A stretch of 64,000 bases of DNA from Patellaria atrata CBS 101060 (lineage: Eukaryota): positions 781,550 to 845,549 of the forward strand of contig MU006094.1 of the NCBI GenBank assembly GCA_010093705.1. Direction: 5' to 3'. The notes beneath the pieces are model-generated. The model saw only the letters and a program-made list of their open reading frames with translations. It had not been told where the DNA came from and did not search any database. Position numbers and translations under genes: made by a program. Below are positions 40,543 through 64,000 of this stretch, piece after piece. How positions within the stretch are numbered: the stretch's first letter is position 1; every line of letters starts with the position of its first letter.

Positions 40543-42980
40543 AGATAGATTGAAGGTTTATAATAGATGACGCTTTTCCTTTAATAGACTCGTTTTTGGA
40601 CATATAAACATAGCGATTGGCGTTGGTAGGATAATCGAACAAAATTAGAGCGTTCAGTATAATGATGGGAGGTTGGGTAGAGAGACTTAAAATGCATAAT
40701 ATCTGTACAGGTCGTGTGTCTTTCGCCACATTGTTCTTCCTTGGCTAAAAGAAGTGACTTGGAGTGTCAATAGCACCGTCCGTTTGAAATGATACTCGGC
40801 ATTCTTTTTATATAAGAAATTCTTGCAGAATAGCAATAGTGTAAAACGTTCTATGGACTAGAGTCAATCAGGGTCTAGTGCGCCTGATTAGGAAAGGTAT
40901 CGAAGTTTGGGAAAGACCTAATTTTCGAACCTTATATTCTTCGACATCATTACAATTCTACGATCGGAAATGTCTTGATTCATGACATTATGTTTCAGCT
41001 CTTAATGATTAGAGGAGGGGAATATCACGCCGACTGGGTTCTCCACCGCGGTTCCTCCACTGACGAGAGTGGTAGTGCTGCTGGTTTTTACTCCTGGGGC
41101 GAGATACTGAGACTCTGTACTGCTGGCTTAGTAGTACAATATTGACATTATTTCTCGAGCTATCTAAAGATGAGGTCTCAGATGAGCTCGGAGCTCTGTA
41201 TCCAGACTGGTCATTGTGCAGCTCTGACCAGCCATCGACATGCTTAAGCAACAGAGTGGTCCTAAACTATCGTCCTTGAGTGGTACAAACCCAGCCTACT
41301 TTGCTATAACTTTGACTCTGACCTAGAGTTTTCTGATCTAAACCCACCGATACTGGAAACAAGAGAACTCTGGCGATCCATACTTCCACTTGCACGATTG
41401 AAGTCGGTACCATGCATAAAGAGTGGGTTCCTCAATCGATCTACGATGTCAAAATCACTTACGGTCAGTAACACTCTCATATCCTTCCTATCGTACTACC
41501 CCTAAACATGAAGGAAGCTTAAGAACACGCAATATATGTCATTAGTTGTGCGGACTTACACAAAGGATTACCGTTTCGCAAGTTAAACATCCTGCTAGGT
41601 GCTCAAACTCATCAGATTCCCGTTCCTAGCTTGGATCCAGTGTTCACTGCCACACTCGCCGCTACCATGACTAATAGAGCTATGTACCTGTTGTACTGGA
41701 AGTTTTGGTATCCGTTTGCGGCTTGAATAGCACTATTCGCGATTCTCCATACAAGATCGAGCGATTGATGGGAAGGATAAAGATCGTCCGACAATCTCAC
41801 GTGTGATGGTTACGTCTAACAGGTAACACCAACAAGGACATATCTCAGACCGGACAACAGTGCCAATGTCTGAACATCCATTAGTTCACCGGAGAGTCTA
41901 GCCACTTGAGAGTGTCTGCAAAAATTCTATTCCCCCGTCATTGACTAGTGCATAAACACCCTCGACGAGGTCCCGCGATCTGCCACAGCATTCCCCAGTC
42001 CAATAGAGACATCTGCTTTATTCGGACATATCTGACGAGGGTACAAAGGGGTGTCGAGGTCAAAGATCTTTTAGAATTTCTGAATCCGATGTTCGATCTA
42101 CGGATCAACAAAGGTAACACTCGTAATTCGGTCACCAGTAAAAGATTTAACGGGGAGCGAAGTGTTTCATTCGGTAAACGTCCGACAAACCCCCTCTTCT
42201 TATTATTCCTCCCGTCGTGTCCAGAATCCTGCGGGCTGAAGCGAGCAGTTTCAAACCCACCAATCTCTTGAACTAGTGAGACACCATTGGCAATAACTTC
42301 AAGGGTCTGACGGCAAGCATTTGGGTCTGGAAACGTCGCGACTGATTTAAGTTATTGGGGCCCCAGTCCTCAGTATCTTGAGTCCTTCCTTTTCTGGCGT
42401 AATTCCAGTCGTTTTTCAACGTCATTTTCACTTCCGTTTCTTGCTCCTGTCGTTCCGCCTTCATGCACTGTCACAGTCCAGTTCTAAACGAAACCCAAGA
42501 ATGCATAACCCCGCATGTCCTCCCCGTCTCGCGTTTGGCAATATATTCATAACAGCCTATAGGTCTAAACTATGGGGCTTCTTTCTTGTATTCAACGTTT
42601 TGATCTCGACGTAGTGTATCTATCCACTGCGATTGGATGCCAAAACTTTACTTGCTGCATATTCAACCTAACCATCATTATGATGGATATAAAACACAGC
42701 TGCAATGAGAAGCTGCAGGCTGACATCCGCCACTTTTAACTTTTACACGCCGGTTGGGGGTTTATGTTTGCCCTATTCTAATTTTTAAAGTGTTTCCCAG
42801 AACGTGATTGTGTCTGCACATGTCATTCTTTCTTTGCCCTTAGACATCTGACCTATCTCCCACGAAAGTCTCCAGTCTCCGGGAGTCTCTCTTTTCTTCT
42901 AAGTCAAATCTTAAACATCAACAACGTGAGGAAAGGTCGTTGCGAGTTTGTTCATACTCGTACTCATAACGACCTGAGCA

Positions 42981-56748: not shown

Positions 56749-57813
56749 CACACCTAACGACGTGGCCAAGCCCATCACGGTCAACGGGAAAGCATGGGGA
56801 CGTATGGTGTTGGGATTGGTGTTGGTATCGGTGTTGGCAGCACGACATGATGCTTTACGCGATTTGAGTAGGAGATAGGATGGTGGACGTGGAGCATGGG
56901 TATACTAGCCAGTTTACGAACGTGCAAGCATCCGAGAGAAGAAAGACAGGGAGACACACTGAATAAGACGAAGCTCACGATGGATGTTTGCACGACTATT
57001 TCCCATTTCACCACAGTCTCCCATCAGACGGACCAGCAGGATCTCAACGAGCACTCACAGCAGCGCAGAGGGTATGAGTTTAAGCTGAGGTTAAGGAAGA
57101 GAATATACAGCCATCAATACAATAAGTATACAACTAGATAATGTACGTGTACATGTATGCAAGCACACCAACCGAAACTGCGCATAGGAGAATGCAATGA
57201 CGTCCCGTCCCTGCATCAAGGGTGAGGTAGATATCACCTCCAGTTCCCGTCCTTTGCATGTACACCACACACCTCACCACACCACAAAATGCACGACATA
57301 TTCAAACGCACTAAATTCTCTAAACGTACATAATCCATCTACTCCGCCACTCGTGCGTAGAGATAATCCACGCACCCTTCCCCAAAGCAGCCCTAAAGAA
57401 GCCTTAATCGACTGATCCATCCACCCACCCATCACGCCATGGTAAAGTAAGTAAAAAGTGTGTTGAAAAAAAGCCTCACCTACCGTGGCTCCCATCACAC
57501 TTGAATAATCAGTGTTGTACCCGTCGTGCCAGCTCTCTAGTCACCGGTCGGAATATCGAGATAAAGGAAAATAAGGGTTAGGGGGAAATATACATCTCGG
57601 TGTAAGTGTGTGATTTTAGTTGTAAACGTTTCAGTTGTAGTGGATATGAGATATATCTTCATCCATCGAATCGCACATTTGTCATGAGGGAAGAGACGGG
57701 GAGAGTGGGGAAGCTCGAGATAGTGAGGGGAGATGATGTCCGCATGAGAATATTACAGCCGGATTTATTGATCATGTAGAAAAACACCACGACATCCCCT
57801 CCTCATCAGAAAT

Positions 57814-59943
57814 TTATAAGATTGCTTCCCACATTCCCGGACCCATCTTGACGGGAACATCAGTCTCACTCGCGCAACACGCACGCTTGCGGCCTGGACC
57901 TCTCTGGACCGGCTTTCTGTTCTCGGCACCAGCACAACGTTCACTGGGACTCTGCAGAGCCTTTGCAGCAAATCTTGTACTAGAGGTGCGGCCCTGTGAT
58001 GTGAGGGTAAAAGTCTCCGCAACATTGCGATCCGTGAGCACCCCGTTGGAGGCCGGGTGCCAGTCTGGATTGTTGAGGAGGGCACGGACCTCACTCTGCA
58101 AGCTGAGGTCGGTAGATGATCTGCCTCGCTTCCTCGTCTTAGCTTCCTCGGCGGAATGTAGCGCGGCTGACAGACTAGATTGCTGCTTTGACGCTTGCCT
58201 CCCGCGCTTTGGACCGGGAACGGGAGTCGCATCCGAGTCATCGAGGGTGAAGCTCGAGAAATCGGGTGAAGACATTGGCTCGGCCGTCAACGGTTCGTTA
58301 GTGAGGTCGATGATCTCCTTCTCCTTGACCGGTGCCACGCAGGGCAGTCTCGCATTACGGCAGGTCGCCACGCGAGCCAGTCTGGGTTGACTCGCCGCCG
58401 GCGCCCATGCAGCGGATGAGACTGACGAGATTGACGAGGCACGCGATGAACGCGAGGAATTATCGGAGACCATGGACTCGGGGGAAGACGAAAGCGACGT
58501 TGAGGATAGCGCAAGAGAAGGTCGACGACCGCAGAAGTGATAAGCTTCTAGACCATTCTGTTTCTGAATGGGGTTCCAGGGATCTAGAGCTGTGCGCGCC
58601 ATACAAGCATTCTGAGCCTGGGCGATTGCCGTGCACATAGACGGTCTCCTCGGTCCGAAAGCGGCAGTACCCACTGCAGGGGTACCGAACACAGTGGACT
58701 GAGGTGTTAGGATAGGTGTAGGCAATGGACCCATTCGTACTAACGACGGAGTAGGGGGGATATTCTCCGTCCTTGGCTCAAGGTAACTAGGTAGCCTTGT
58801 TGTTGGAGATGATGTGAAATCGTTGGTGAATGTGGTTTCAGGAATGTTTGTACGCAAGGATACCTTCCTCACCGTTGGGCGAGGATTGATAGCGATAGTA
58901 TCCAATTCGGGAGTTAGGCAAGGGACAATCGTTTTCCAATCGCTCGATGCCGGGCTAGTTGGACAGGCCCCCGGCGACGGAGGATGAGCGGCTGGTGAAT
59001 AGTTGAGGACGACTTCCTGCCATCGTTCGAATATTGGATCCGTGATATGTAACTTCCAGTCGACTGCACGAAGGAAAGCCAATTCGTTGGTATTGATCTC
59101 GCAGACCTTGAGTCCAGATATCTTACTCCAAGCTCTTGCTGAGTAATTACGATCCTGAAGATACTTCGACGCAAGAATAAGAGCCGCGAGAAACATACGT
59201 CTACCGCATTGGAGTGCGCGTAGTGAATGCTGGTCCTCCGGTTGCTCCATGGTGAAGTCGTGCTTAGGCACATGACCCTTGATGAGGATCAGATAGTAAA
59301 GAGCGACTTGTAACGTCGAATAGCTAGTACGAGATCGTCGCAAGGTCTCTTGAATGAATGTGCGAAGCGGTAGAACACGACCTTCATTGCGGCACGCCGG
59401 CATAGACAACGGCCAGATGACTTCAACCATTTGAGTGGCAGAGTCTCCAAGGAGGGACAATCTCAGCGAAAGTCAAAGAATTGGAAAGGGACAGTACTTG
59501 AACTCACCAACTAAACTATCAACGAAATTAATTTTCCTTTCGCTCTGGCGGACTAGCTGAGGTGGTGCACGGCTATTAGAGGAGGTTGAGCACCGTCGGG
59601 GGTTTTGCCGAAGCTCTTGCGGGACAGGTACATTTACGTCCGCATTCCGCAATGGTGGAAGACCCCAACTGGATCCTGAGACCACTGTTTGCTGTGCTTG
59701 CTGTAACTTTGGATTTTGGAATTGCGGACGGTTCAAGGCCCATAACTGGTCGGCACCATCCCAATTGCAATTGACGGAGCTCACCGCCGATGAAGCAGAA
59801 CTTGCTGAAACTTGCGATGAGGAGTCCACGACGGAGAAGACAGATGATGAAGATGATGAGGCGGATGAGGAGAGTGATGGCGCATACGGATGGCTGCGGG
59901 GTGATGTCGCATCAAAGGTCGGATGCGGGATGTCGTAGGTCAT
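57814..59943 (-). CDS. CLG1: Clg1-type Pho85 (PCL-family) cyclin
   Basis: Exons 59943-59508 and 59444-57814. FVDSLVDSATQMVEVIWP, LRTFIQETLRRSRTSYSTLQVALYYL and CGRRMFLAALILASKYLQDRNYSARAWSKISGL form the cyclin box. Confidence 0.93.
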
Positions 59944-60016
59944 TGTGGTGGGAAGGTAACGCCTTTTAACCGAAGATCCCCAAGACGTGTTAAAGGAAAT
60001 AGATATAATAAGAAGT

Positions 60017-60046
60017 GAGAGGAGAGGAGAGGAGAGGAGAGGAGAG
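60017..60046. repeat. (GAGAG)6 pentanucleotide microsatellite, read as (CTCTC)6 in the CLG1 leader
   Basis: Six perfect copies read directly from the sequence. Confidence 0.95.
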
Positions 60047-60495
60047 ATAATAGATTGGAACTTTTCCGGAAAGGTATTCTTAGAAAGAGCAAGTACTTTT
60101 CGTACCTAACTTGAAATGAAAATTGGGTCGAATGGTCGTGGTGTGACCAGAGGTAACCGATGAGACAAACCGTTCGGAGTGAGCCTAAACAACCCGTGCG
60201 TCGTGAGAACGGCAGCAAATTAGTTCTTCCACAAGTTCTTCTGCTAAATATGCAGAATAGAGGATGTTGCGGGTTGTTTTCCAAAGTGACTTTTTGAGAA
60301 TGGTCCAACAAACGAAACCGATATGTAAGGTATCCAATTGCTGGGCTGAGAAACCCTCCAGTCACCGTACGCTCAGTGTCACCTGAACAAGACCTTATGT
60401 GAGAACCTGACCGCAATGCACTCCGATGATGCGACTTCGTCGATAGCTCAAGCTACCGTAAAAGCCGAAAGGTCGAGGGTGTACGCGGAAAGAAT

Positions 60496-60600
60496 CTAGA
60501 CGAGGAAGCCTTCAAAATCAAAGGCCTTGTTCGAAGGAGCAGCGGTGACACATGAACGACGGATGACTGGAGATGAGTTAAGAGGAACGCCGGGGCACAT
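60496..60600 (-). CDS. Upstream ORF (34 aa) in the putative CLG1 5' leader
   Basis: ACG-ATG context; MCPGVPLNSSPVIRRSCVTAAPSNKAFDFEGFLV*; lies between two long ATG-free tracts. Confidence 0.5.
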   Translation of the reverse strand: MCPGVPLNSSPVIRRSCVTAAPSNKAFDFEGFLV

Positions 60601-61158
60601 CGTGACTCTGTTCGTTGTTGCGGTAGAGGTGGTTATCTGGGCATAAAGCTCGCCACCTAAGCCGGTTTGACTTTCAAAGTTAACGGATGATGTTTTTGAA
60701 TCAGGTGTTCGTCGGTCTTTTGGTCGTGTGTAGTAAGTTCGTAGATTTTTTTTTTTTTCAAGAACGTGAATTATTGTGTGGAATATATCGTTTGTAGAGT
60801 TGATGTTAAGGTCGTCGCGATCGAGTTAACGAGGCAAGGGCCGTTACAGGGTTAGATATGGGGTGTTGTTCGGAGGGTAATAGGCAAATTCAAGAGCAGA
60901 AATAATTAAAACTGAGTGGAGAGTATGGTTAAATAAAGGTACAGAAGGTCGAAGTGAATGACTATCAAGTATGAGTCTTTTGGGTAGGCGGCAGTGGTGC
61001 CAACGGCTTCAGTCGGGCTCGCGTTTGACTCTGCTTGCTGAAGGAAGGCTTTCGGAGGTGTGACAACGAGGAAATCTTGGAAGCAATCAAATAGTCAAGG
61101 GAACAAGTAGAAGAAGAATGAGGTGTCGATTTGATTGAGTATTTGAGACAAGCGTCAG

Positions 61159-61200
61159 TTAAACGCCCCAGCTCTCGTAGATGGACATGACGGTGGCCAT
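61159..61200 (-). CDS. Upstream ORF (13 aa) at the 5' end of the putative CLG1 leader
   Basis: Optimal CCAAA-ATG-GC context just downstream of a CCAAT box (about 61290) and a CT-rich tract; MATVMSIYESWGV*. Confidence 0.55.
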   Translation of the reverse strand: MATVMSIYESWGV

Positions 61201-64000
61201 TTTGGATTGCTGGTTTGACTTTTGGAAGAGGGAGGCGAGGGCTGGCGCTTTTGATAGAAGAGGAGAGAGATGAGAGCGCATCGGCGGTCATTGGCGGGCG
61301 GGTGTGACTCGACGCAACCAAAGGACCCTTTCAACTTTCAGCGCCTCCCACTTCCCACGAACCCCAGCCAACCTAACCTAGAGATAGAACTAATAATCCC
61401 CCGGGGCCTTTTTTTTTCATCTCTCTTTACGTGTCCCTACACCAAATTTGGCCACAGCAGATACGTTTCGAGAATTTACTGGCAGTTACACTTCTATCTG
61501 TTGATCTCTTCGCTCCCTTTGACTATGCCGCCTTCCGGTTCCTACGGTAGCTTCTCCTTAAAACCACTACCTTATTAGGTGCTGCTTAATTGACTCCCTC
61601 ATTTTGCAGAAACACAAAAGCATTTTGCGTCCACAGCTGCATCACTAAAAAGGTACCTACAGCTTATTTTTGATTGCTCTTTGCAGTACTCGTACAGCTC
61701 CTTTCTTCACTTTCGCTGCTCTCACGTTTCCTGTACGAGGAGGCTGCACCCTTACTGTAACTTGTACCCATCTTATGCCCCTCAAAGAAATGCGAGCTGT
61801 AACGTCGTCTGCCTGAAAGCTGAAGAAGCCAATCCTAGCTTGAATATATTTTTGCAATAAAGTCTGCCTTTGTTACCTTTGTTTGGGATATCGATTCCAA
61901 CCAGTCATCGCTCCCTGGAATCCACCATTACCACTCCCCTCTCTTCCGTCTTTCGTGTAGAACTCTCGAGCCTATTCTCCGTTTGCATCACCTCAGCCTA
62001 GAGATGCTCCTCCCTCTCCTCCCTTCTGCCAACGCTCTGCCTACGACACGCAAACATACAGTAATGATCCGTGCCGTCTCTCGCGATCGTAATACTGCAA
62101 TTTACGGCAAGGTGGTGTCCTGTTCTGCAAAGCGATCCAATGATGTAGTTGCTGGCTGACCTTCCCCTCATCCATACGAATCCGTGCCACAAGCTGATTC
62201 GAGAGATTCAGCTTTTCCCTTGTTTCCAAAAAGGCCGGAAAGTCCGAGCGGGCGTCCTTCCCCAAAGAGAGGAATTAGTGTATTTATTTTCATTAACCCT
62301 TACCGCAATCGGTTGAATTTGCGTCCTTTTGACTCACCACTTTCACCTCCAGAGTAGACAGCAATCTTTCAGAAAAGATATTATTATAATTGCCCGCCAA
62401 CAGTGCCTAGTAAGCCCTTAGCAAATCTATCTGCAAAGTAGAATGCCGTGACGATTACGGACTGTGAAGAATCCATATGTGTTACGGAATCATATGACGA
62501 GCTATGTAAGCGTACCCTCTAATGGGTACGGTCTCAGTACAGTCATCCAGATACTCCGCGGGGACGGACGAAAGGCCTATTAGAGAGTGTCTCTGTTGAG
62601 ATGCCAAATCATCTTCAAGGCCAAAAAGGGTAACATGAAGCTCGTTGTATTATGGTTCCAGAACGCATAAACGCACCGAAGGCTTCGAGAAGTTGTTTTC
62701 AGGAGAAAGAAAATAATGGTTCGAATGCCTATGGAGAGCTCTGGATCAACGGAACACAGCCGCAAGAAAAGATTGTCATTCATCAGTGGCTGCCTTCGCC
62801 CAAAGACAAAACCTGCCGGATACGCTCTAGAGTCATAACTTTGAGCAACTTTGAGCTTTGTCTAGGATCGTAGTCAGCCAGATTGGCATTATCGCTGAGA
62901 ATGGTTCCCTCTCTCAAACACCTCATCAAATCGAAGTGAAGCTCCGGAAGGCGATTGTTCGATTCCGAGCTTCATCCGATCTCGCGGTGCTGATATCCTT
63001 GGGGTTCCGATGGATTGGGAAAGGTGGCAAAGTCTGGAGGCTGAGTCAACGCTTTTCAACCTGAACTGCCCGACCCGACATCATACATGGCAACAGTCGC
63101 ATCATGTCACCACCCAACAACCTCTCTAACCTCCACAGCCCACACCGTGATCGGAGGGTAATCTTTATTTGAGGAACAGGCAGCAGAGCCACGGGCGCAC
63201 AGAGCTCCAGAGTTCGGTAATGGGGAACCGTGGCACCATAACGTGACCGATACTCGTTGGCAACCATGGGCTGGCTGTATCAAAGACACTTCAGCAGAGA
63301 CGCATCCTTGGTCATTGTTGACTTGTGGGATGGATCAAGATTATTTTCTCATCTGTTCTGCTGACCGTGGTTATCCGCGGCGATGGTGGCCCTGAAGGAC
63401 AAAACGTGTCATCCACCTGAGCGTGAGATTCTTTGTTGTGAGTTCGTAAAAGGCTGGTGGCTGCCTGGAGGTCAATCTCGAGTTCTCGATCTAGCGTGCT
63501 TGACGATTGCTCATCGTGTGTGTGATGCCCAAAATTTCCGCAACGACAGTGAGACACGGGCTGAATGTGATTTTCATGGGGCGATATGAGATACTGCAGC
63601 CTAATTATGGCGATTATTGATTGGTTGTGCAGTCACCCATTTGCATGGTATTATTGACAACAGTAACCAGATAACAGCATTCTCGCACAGATTAATGCTG
63701 ATTCTCGAAAAGATTGACGAATACGCAAGATACGTGCAAGACGTGAGATTTCAGCTCAGATCGCCGTAGGCTGCTTTGAAGATAATGCATACTTCTTGAC
63801 GCAGGAACGATCATATTGGAATTATACAATAAGCAAGATATCTGGAAACAATCCAATCTCAGTCCAGGTATGTCGAGAGATGACGATAGTAACAGTTGAG
63901 AAGGTAGGCGCAAAACCACCAGGCAACAACCGCCAACAATCGCCCCGTCAGCTCAGATGCATAATGCGACAAGTCAATGAAAAGTAAGATGCAACCCCAG

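Follow-up and report, generated by a model that had tools for sequence, protein, structure and literature searches.

Short upstream open reading frames (uORFs) precede several regulated coding sequences, among them that of the Pho85 cyclin gene PCL5 of Saccharomyces cerevisiae. The 5′ untranslated region (UTR) of PCL5 contains two AUG uORFs, two UUG uORFs and one A29 tract; the uORFs repress translation, eIF3 supports reinitiation, and the leader relies on the A29 tract and Pab1 (bioRxiv 10.1101/2023.05.11.540079). Conservation of the PCL5 uORFs among Saccharomyces species is stated in a second report (PMC1964767). That uORFs can control a Pcl5-type cyclin is thus not new in itself, and the yeast precedent cited in the initial annotation of the DNA analyzed here does exist. 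The subject of this work is the leader of a PHO80-like cyclin gene, located on the minus strand of one 64,000-nt stretch of the Patellaria atrata CBS 101060 genome (contig MU006094.1, positions 781,550 to 845,549; referred to as the window, with positions counted from its first letter). The new part is that this leader combines uORFs with a hairpin. Like PCL5, the window gene is a Pho85-type cyclin gene with a uORF-bearing leader, and many of its orthologues carry Pcl5 as an automatic source name. Different from PCL5, the window leader contains a hairpin, whereas none is mentioned in the accessible part of the yeast report (bioRxiv 10.1101/2023.05.11.540079). The window leader has an A13 run rather than an A29 tract, and only 4 of 32 leaders contain any A-run of at least 7; a poly(A) tract shared with yeast PCL5 was therefore rejected. 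The A13 run is located at 60746-60758 (minus), between uORF1 and uORF2.

Other systems resemble parts of this layout. Like the GCN4, cpc-1 and ATF4 leaders, the window leader is long and AUG-free in its spacers, and its distal uORF is longer than the short one near the 5′ end. Compared to these leaders, however, its spacers are much longer, one hairpin is built around the distal uORF, and in Dothideomycetes the distal uORF ends hundreds of nucleotides before the main AUG. Polymenis and Schmidt reportedly described in 1997 that synthesis of the G1 cyclin CLN3 is coupled to translational capacity via a uORF in a long leader. CLN3 is thus also a cyclin with a uORF in a long leader, but it belongs to another cyclin family and has a single short uORF; we know of no conserved structure in its leader. 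The cauliflower mosaic virus (CaMV) 35S leader is likewise long and combines short uORFs with an elongated stable hairpin, which scanning ribosomes have to bypass; here, by contrast, the gene is a cellular fungal one and a 29–34-codon uORF enters the stem. As for the arg-2/CPA1 attenuator peptide and the plant conserved-peptide uORFs (CPuORFs), the uORF sequence looks conserved across distant species. Different from those peptides, the conservation is at the nucleotide and pairing level and shows no peptide codon-position signature.

We propose that uORF1, uORF3 and the hairpin together make the leader a conserved cis-regulatory unit, in which the hairpin would force initiation at uORF3 and the cyclin would need reinitiation; we lean slightly towards this proposal. 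To compare leaders, metagenome contigs were scanned with a profile of the cyclin alignment, which gave 80 loci, 72 of them with both exons. In 28 of the 72 the exons directly abut without an intron, so these are spliced mRNA contigs; the other 44 are genomic, because the intron is present. Loci were assigned to classes by their best match to named proteins. The first locus group is from Dothideomycetes and the second from Leotiomycetes, L047, L053 and L055 are from Penicillium, and L032, L050 and L064 are nearest to Eurotiomycetes, with only 50–54% identity.

The mRNA contigs show that the uORFs lie upstream on the mature mRNA in the orthologues. Twelve of the 28 have leaders of 1000 nt or more, the longest being 1338 nt, and uORF1 to uORF3 are present in colinear leaders of the spliced contigs, in agreement with the single long mRNA that had been suggested for this gene. 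In four same-species pairs (L018/L029, L013/L015, L040/L042 and L041/L042; identity ≥99%), the leader is colinear between the two contigs and only the intron of the coding sequence (CDS) is missing. This shows an orthologous leader that is continuous with the CDS and contains no intron, and in these pairs splicing does not remove the uORFs. Judging from the orthologous mRNAs, 61200-59944 (minus) would be, in P. atrata, one unspliced mRNA leader of ~1.26 kb for a Pho85 cyclin of the Pcl5/Pas1 type; taken jointly with the full proposal, we rate this as a little better than an even call.

The dominant conserved feature of the leader is one 218-nt covarying hairpin, which contains most of uORF3 and was missed in the initial annotation. 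It is predicted as an elongated RNA domain at 60355..60572 (minus), with a minimum free energy of −95.7 kcal/mol. The 5′ strand of the main stem (60526..60572, minus) corresponds to codons ~10–25 of uORF3 and forms helices at 60572-60547, 60546-60544 and 60533-60526. The 3′ strand (60356..60391, minus), the most conserved block of the leader outside the uORFs, includes CGGTGACTGGAG; the exact arm CGGTGACTGGAG is present as a single copy in the window. A 281-nt region folds at −103.1 kcal/mol, compared to −80.7 ± 4.6 kcal/mol for shuffled sequences (z = −4.85, 0/200). In the leader alignment of 14 species, blocks conserved at the nucleotide level are located inside uORF3 and ~100–140 nt past its stop, and the uORF3 block CTCCAGTCAC is the reverse complement of the downstream block GTGACTGGAG.

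Covariation was analyzed on 24 distinct leaders (alignment A2). RNAalifold gave one 17-bp long-range helix, in which 95.6% of the cells are paired (slid controls, 27–50%) and 13 pairs show double changes, compared to 5.1 ± 1.5 in shuffled alignments (0/500) and 3–8 in slid controls. The RIBOSUM-scored consensus contains 65 pairs in one elongated domain, with 89.3% of the cells paired and double changes in 31 pairs, against 16.1 ± 2.7 for shuffles (0/500) and 15–20 for slid controls; related sequences may beat shuffles even without structure, and, to the detriment of our proposal, structure and test share one alignment, so that the slid controls are at a disadvantage. The window forms 58 of the 65 consensus pairs, and its two main arm pairs (inverted repeats I1 and I4) were recovered independently by a repeat search of the window. 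The arm pairs differ in a complementary manner between classes, being CTCCAGTCACTC/CGGTGACTGGAG in Dothideomycetes versus CTCCAGTCGCCA/CGGCGACTGGAG in Leotiomycetes. No Rfam covariance model reached its gathering score; the only two matches, both at chance level, scored 17 bits versus 49 and 16.2 versus 40, and they lie off the hairpin.

The leader is also purged of ATGs. Between 61200 and the cyclin ATG at 59943, the minus strand contains exactly five, at 61200, 61188, 60644, 60600 and 60553. A full minus-strand listing over 59900-61700 confirmed that the ATGs given in the initial annotation (61200 with its in-frame Met, 60644, 60600 and 60553) are exact; two further ones, 61281 and 61291, are located just upstream of 61200. 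The two long ATG-free tracts noticed earlier are real, with gaps of 610 and 544 nt that are the longest two on either strand of the window, where the next-longest ATG-free intervals are 491 and 466 nt. The expectation of one ATG per 64 nt that had been attached to them is an overestimate, given how little G the minus strand of the leader contains (G 16%, C 30%). With dinucleotide-preserving shuffles, 10.0 ± 2.6 ATGs are expected in 1317 nt and 5 are observed (P(≤5) = 0.039). ATG is the most depleted of all 64 trinucleotides in the leader, and just 0.04% of 5000 shuffles had a second gap that reached 544 nt. The plus strand of the same stretch is normal, with 24 ATGs versus 20.7 expected. Taken together, the excess over shuffles, the normal plus strand and the window-longest gaps indicate that the depletion is real, strand-specific and beyond composition.

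A comparison across orthologues, which had been suggested together with the annotation, showed that the depletion is a conserved feature with its limit at uORF1. At 21 distinct genomic loci, the 1000 nt before the start contain 62 sense ATGs versus 162.6 expected, and 353 antisense ATGs versus 367.7 expected. The sense ATG density at the genomic loci is 1.6–2.5 per 100 nt upstream of about −1300 and 0.05–0.67 per 100 nt from there to the start, compared to 1.0–2.5 per 100 nt throughout for the antisense strand. These data bear on the possibility that in P. atrata this DNA is intergenic, serves as a promoter or gives rise to a non-coding transcript of its own upstream of the gene, and that its ATG gaps come from composition and chance. 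The P. atrata transcript is placed by homology and the ATG count of the single window reaches only P = 0.039, which leaves some room for it. However, orthologous mRNAs span the homologous stretch, all the elements are found at homologous places in the window, only one strand is depleted, and no other ATG-free interval of the window is as long as these two gaps. We regard this explanation as very improbable.

In the same comparison, uORF1 and uORF3 proved to keep their position, length and reading frame. uORF1 (61159..61200, minus) has 13 codons (MATVMSIYESWGV) plus a stop and a strong context, with A at −3 and G at +4; ATG 61188 is its in-frame internal Met. It is present in all 16 representative leaders, where it has 12–15 codons (8 in one) and is located at −1041 to −1332, usually with A at −3 and G at +4. 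uORF3 (60496..60600, minus) has 34 codons plus TAG and A at −3; 28 nt separate its start from the base of the hairpin downstream, and its stop falls in the apical part of the hairpin. In the representative leaders it is also found in 16 of 16, with 29–34 codons and A at −3. One hidden Markov model (HMM) of 16 orthologous uORF3 peptides, built without the window, was searched against 3489 sense and antisense ORF pieces; it finds the window uORF3 at E = 6.2e-6, and the first antisense hit has E = 0.1. All 24 leaders keep the ATG and TAG of uORF3 unchanged and in frame with each other, and the indel classes inside it are all multiples of three (9/9), compared to 5/32 after the stop. Both uORFs are thus conserved beyond chance in a leader in which other AUGs are depleted.

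The other two uORFs behave differently, and we rejected both as core parts of the system. uORF2 (60633..60644, minus) encodes MPR plus a stop in a weak context with T at −3. It is dispensable, being present in 11 of the 16 representative leaders (2–11 codons, weak context) and absent from 5. The nested ORF MCHRCSFEQGL (60518..60553, minus; 11 codons, another frame) is specific to this genome: in alignment A2, none of the other 23 leaders has an ATG at the 60553 position.

The uORFs had been described as discrete peptide uORFs, and uORF3 was examined for selection on its peptide. Over 24 sequences, the codon-position entropy is 0.97, 0.81 and 0.87 for positions 1, 2 and 3, respectively. There is no excess at the third position and thus no sign of amino-acid-level selection, whereas the frame is constrained and the length is kept, as given above. 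The conserved peptide segments TPVTRRS and NKA coincide with strands of the stem, and the conserved-peptide interpretation of uORF3 was demoted owing to this negative selection test. Its apparent peptide conservation is best explained at the nucleotide level. The trait that is kept is the ability of a ribosome to start ~25 nt before the stem, read the 5′ strand and stop inside the domain; ‘conserved peptide’ uORFs can in this way arise as by-products of RNA pairing.

uORF3 could instead encode a regulatory peptide of the arginine-attenuator type that, while still nascent, arrests its own ribosome in response to a metabolite. The apparent peptide conservation (..TPVTRRSE..NKAF..GF.C), the conserved frame and the invariant TAG would suit this. 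Besides the flat entropy and the overlap of the conserved segments with the stem strands, the peptide varies by class (PVTRRS, PVASLA, PIARVA) while the pairing is kept, and we consider a stalling peptide quite improbable.

All these observations enter the mechanism that we propose. Anatomy, conservation and presence on orthologous mRNAs are established, and every mechanistic step that follows is one that we infer. A scanning 40S subunit, either fresh from the cap or resumed after uORF1, would be unable to melt a hairpin of about −96 kcal/mol. The stem would hold scanning subunits near the uORF3 AUG and make initiation there nearly obligatory; the translating 80S ribosome would then unzip the stem and terminate inside the domain. 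The main AUG, 412 nt past the hairpin, would be reached only by subunits that resume scanning. Little cyclin would then be made, in an amount set by reinitiation and by helicase capacity, and synthesis would fall steeply when translational capacity falls. The short cap-proximal uORF1 may set the share of subunits that arrive in reinitiation mode. The leader looks anciently conserved, and its layout probably throttles the output of cyclin protein.

The mechanism put forward in the initial annotation is of the GCN4/cpc-1/ATF4 type. When ternary complex is plentiful, 40S subunits that have translated uORF1 would reinitiate at the inhibitory uORF3; under eIF2α phosphorylation uORF3 would be skipped, and the cyclin would be induced by starvation. 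The two-uORF core fits this well, with a short cap-proximal uORF1, a longer distal uORF3, good contexts and long AUG-free spacers. The geometry does not. The spacer from uORF1 to the next AUG is 320–514 nt, and spacing experiments on GCN4 are reported to indicate that such a distance is long enough to regain ternary complex even under starvation. Neither is the distal uORF near or overlapping the main ORF: uORF3 ends 552 nt before the main ATG (363–653 nt in 16 leaders). In addition, subunits that skip uORF3 would still face the hairpin of about −96 kcal/mol. Delayed reinitiation of this type is therefore, in our opinion, unlikely.

A ribosome shunt of the CaMV 35S type has also to be weighed. 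Here the 40S subunit, after a short uORF, would jump across the hairpin base and land downstream. The leader is long, with short uORFs and a very stable elongated hairpin that has a conserved base helix, and in Leotiomycetes only 39–69 nt lie between the end of the 3′ arm and the main AUG, a suitable distance for landing. The defining geometry of a shunt, however, is a short uORF that stops a few nucleotides before the stem. In the window, 60 nt separate the stop of uORF2 (60633) from the base of the stem (60572); elsewhere uORF2 is 32–155 nt before uORF3, besides being absent from 5 of 16 leaders, and uORF3 enters the stem rather than ending before it. No short uORF thus ends just 5′ of the stem, and a shunt appears slightly less probable still.

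The hairpin may mainly serve a purpose other than initiation, as a protein site, as a signal for decay or processing (by a double-strand nuclease, or as a small-RNA precursor) or as a localisation element, with the uORFs acting as generic dampers or as triggers of nonsense-mediated decay. The base helix is conserved also in sequence, CTCCAGTC/GACTGGAG being nearly invariant in Dothideomycetes and Leotiomycetes, which hints at sequence-specific recognition, and the leader contains further conserved unpaired motifs. Yet in all 24 leaders the start, stop and frame of uORF3 are in constant register with the stem, and AUGs are purged throughout the leader; both point to selection via scanning ribosomes. 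We think this explanation as improbable as delayed reinitiation.

Leotiomycete leaders have their own uORF trio (5–6, 6–7 and 31–33 codons) and the same long-range helix, with a long-range stem of 25 pairs. L032 and L050 show further compensated changes. By alignment and folding, the base helix of the hairpin recurs in Leotiomycetes and, less clearly, in Penicillium, and the uORF-hairpin layout spans at least two fungal classes and probably three. In the Leotiomycete leaders L051, L056, L062, L063, L065, L066, L075 and L077, the uORF2 AUG (MVAS..) was noticed in the stem of one local predicted hairpin (AAUGGUAGCUAGUA...UACUAGC.CACCAUU), ~70–110 nt 5′ of uORF3.

Several points weigh against the obligatory uORF3 initiation and reinitiation that we propose. 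Seven contigs have shorter leaders of 248–593 nt (L003, L039, L045, L059, L067, L076 and L080), which could be downstream starts or else truncated assemblies, and for P. atrata itself a start site near 61200-61260 is what we infer. Support for the hairpin is uneven: double changes occur in only 4 of the 44 predicted Leotiomycete pairs; L042, one of 19 first-group leaders, lacks the helix base and forms just 7 of the 12 pairs of the arms; the three Penicillium leaders reach 8–9 of 12 pairs when the arms are compared without gaps, which 37–119 of 200 shuffles match, and the shorter hairpin comes from single-sequence folds. As for the mechanism, a 32-codon uORF is long for efficient reinitiation, and the helix could re-form behind the ribosome, which leaves passage of the 3′ strand unexplained. 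Finally, the hairpin base is ~23–28 nt after the uORF3 AUG, and a downstream hairpin best enhances AUG recognition at roughly 14 nt.

A bolder version of the reading just weighed is that uORF3 and the hairpin are an attenuator-like riboregulator of eukaryotes that spans fungal classes, in which translation of uORF3 would remodel the ~220-nt domain and the timing of elongation or termination would gate the 40S subunits. We put this forward tentatively. If it is true, the speed of ribosomes on uORF3, hence the supply of amino acids and tRNA, would be converted directly to the level of a Pho85 cyclin; the regulated cyclin would feed back on the starvation response, and the attenuator-like element would predate the split of Dothideomycetes, Leotiomycetes and Eurotiomycetes.

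In the literature, searched mostly outside subscription journals and supplements, we found no filamentous-fungal description of a purged leader, a frame-locked uORF and a covarying hairpin. Comparative-genomics lists of conserved Aspergillus uORFs are said to exist and may bear on the novelty. To our knowledge, structured RNA elements supported by covariation are rare in the 5′ leaders of cellular eukaryotic genes. The window offers a hairpin locked in register with a frame-conserved uORF, upstream of a cyclin with links to nutrition, and at least two classes of fungi, probably three, share this arrangement. Should the unit gate reinitiation, it would be a concrete and easily mutable model for the coupling of Pho85-cyclin output in fungi to translational capacity, and would possibly link to that capacity the stability of a starvation regulator of the Gcn4/CpcA type. 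Filamentous fungi would then share the recently reported control by uORFs with yeast PCL5, with a structural component in addition.

The 5′ end of the leader was compared with the ends of the orthologous mRNA contigs, which precede the uORF1 ATG by 2–115 nt. Of the 12 long contigs, eight (L013, L014, L018, L022, L030, L040, L064 and L077) start within 7 nt of the first uORF ATG; two of the remaining ones start 46 and 115 nt upstream of uORF1, and two have no uORF1 at the end. With 5′ ends clustered at the uORF1 AUG, start-site choice could include or skip uORF1. This suggests that the main start is so near uORF1 that its AUG might often be skipped, although the clustering may be an assembly artefact. 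In the window, the CCAAT box and CT-rich tract that had been placed just upstream of 61200 are present at 61294-61290 and ~61276-61254, respectively. The CCAAT motif (61290..61294, minus), a putative promoter element upstream of the leader, overlaps ATG 61291, which is probably upstream of the main transcription start. The CT-rich tract and the motif TTCTATCAAAAGCGCC, which aligns with CCTATTAGTATCGCC of relatives, make up 61244..61276 (minus), likely the transcription-start zone. The GC skew changes sign at ~61250-61400. Further upstream, 61300-64000 has no open frame of more than 106 codons on either strand and represents a long gene-poor flank. Two DNA runs from one sample of one study cover the whole stretch without differences; they may be the source of the window itself.

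Outside the uORFs and the hairpin, the leader has several smaller features. Between uORF1 and uORF2, the 14-species alignment contains one conserved motif at 60804..60818 (minus), which is CCGACCGCCAC in relatives. The ATG-free spacer from the hairpin to the main ATG (59944..60354, minus) holds one block at 60131-60163 (minus), kept across the 14 species as ATCGGTTA..GGTCAC.CCACGACC, and one (TCTCC)n pyrimidine repeat at 60010-60045 (minus), shortly before the main ATG; 60008-60056 was masked as a repeat in read mapping. The same spacer contains a perfect 10-nt inverted repeat (60187-60196 / 60270-60279), which could fold into a small additional hairpin.

The cyclin gene consists of exon 1 (59508..59943, minus; 145 codons plus 1 nt, with the ATG at 59943 in the context CACAATGA), one 63-nt intron (59445..59507, minus; GTGAGT...AG) and exon 2 including the stop (57814..59444, minus), which bears the PHO80-like cyclin domain. 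The predicted product is 688 residues in size. Exon 2 matches Pfam PF08613 (PHO80-like cyclin) at E = 9.6e-7 and 29.8 bits, above the curated cut-off of 21, and the homologues also bear PF08613; the product is thus a member of the PHO80-like cyclins. The CLG1 label given to the gene in the initial annotation is unsupported: where relatives have specific source names, these are ‘G1/S-specific cyclin Pcl5’, ‘G1/S-specific cyclin pas1’ or ‘PHO85 cyclin-5’, never Clg1, and being automatic names they are not evidence of orthology. The window cyclin is identical to the public P. atrata CBS 101060 protein, which uses the same start Met (59943), except for 16 residues (GPKRGRQASKQQSSLS) missing from the public model. 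These residues are open, in-frame exon 2 sequence here (58168-58215, minus), and the public model presumably leaves them out because 48 nt were annotated as an intron.

Allowing mismatches, the motif of the 3′ arm of the hairpin has 3 matches in the window, versus 0.24 expected. One copy with one mismatch (CGGTGACTAGAG; 57535-57546, minus) is ~270 nt past the cyclin stop, probably in the 3′ UTR, and a second one-mismatch copy is located at 42870-42881.

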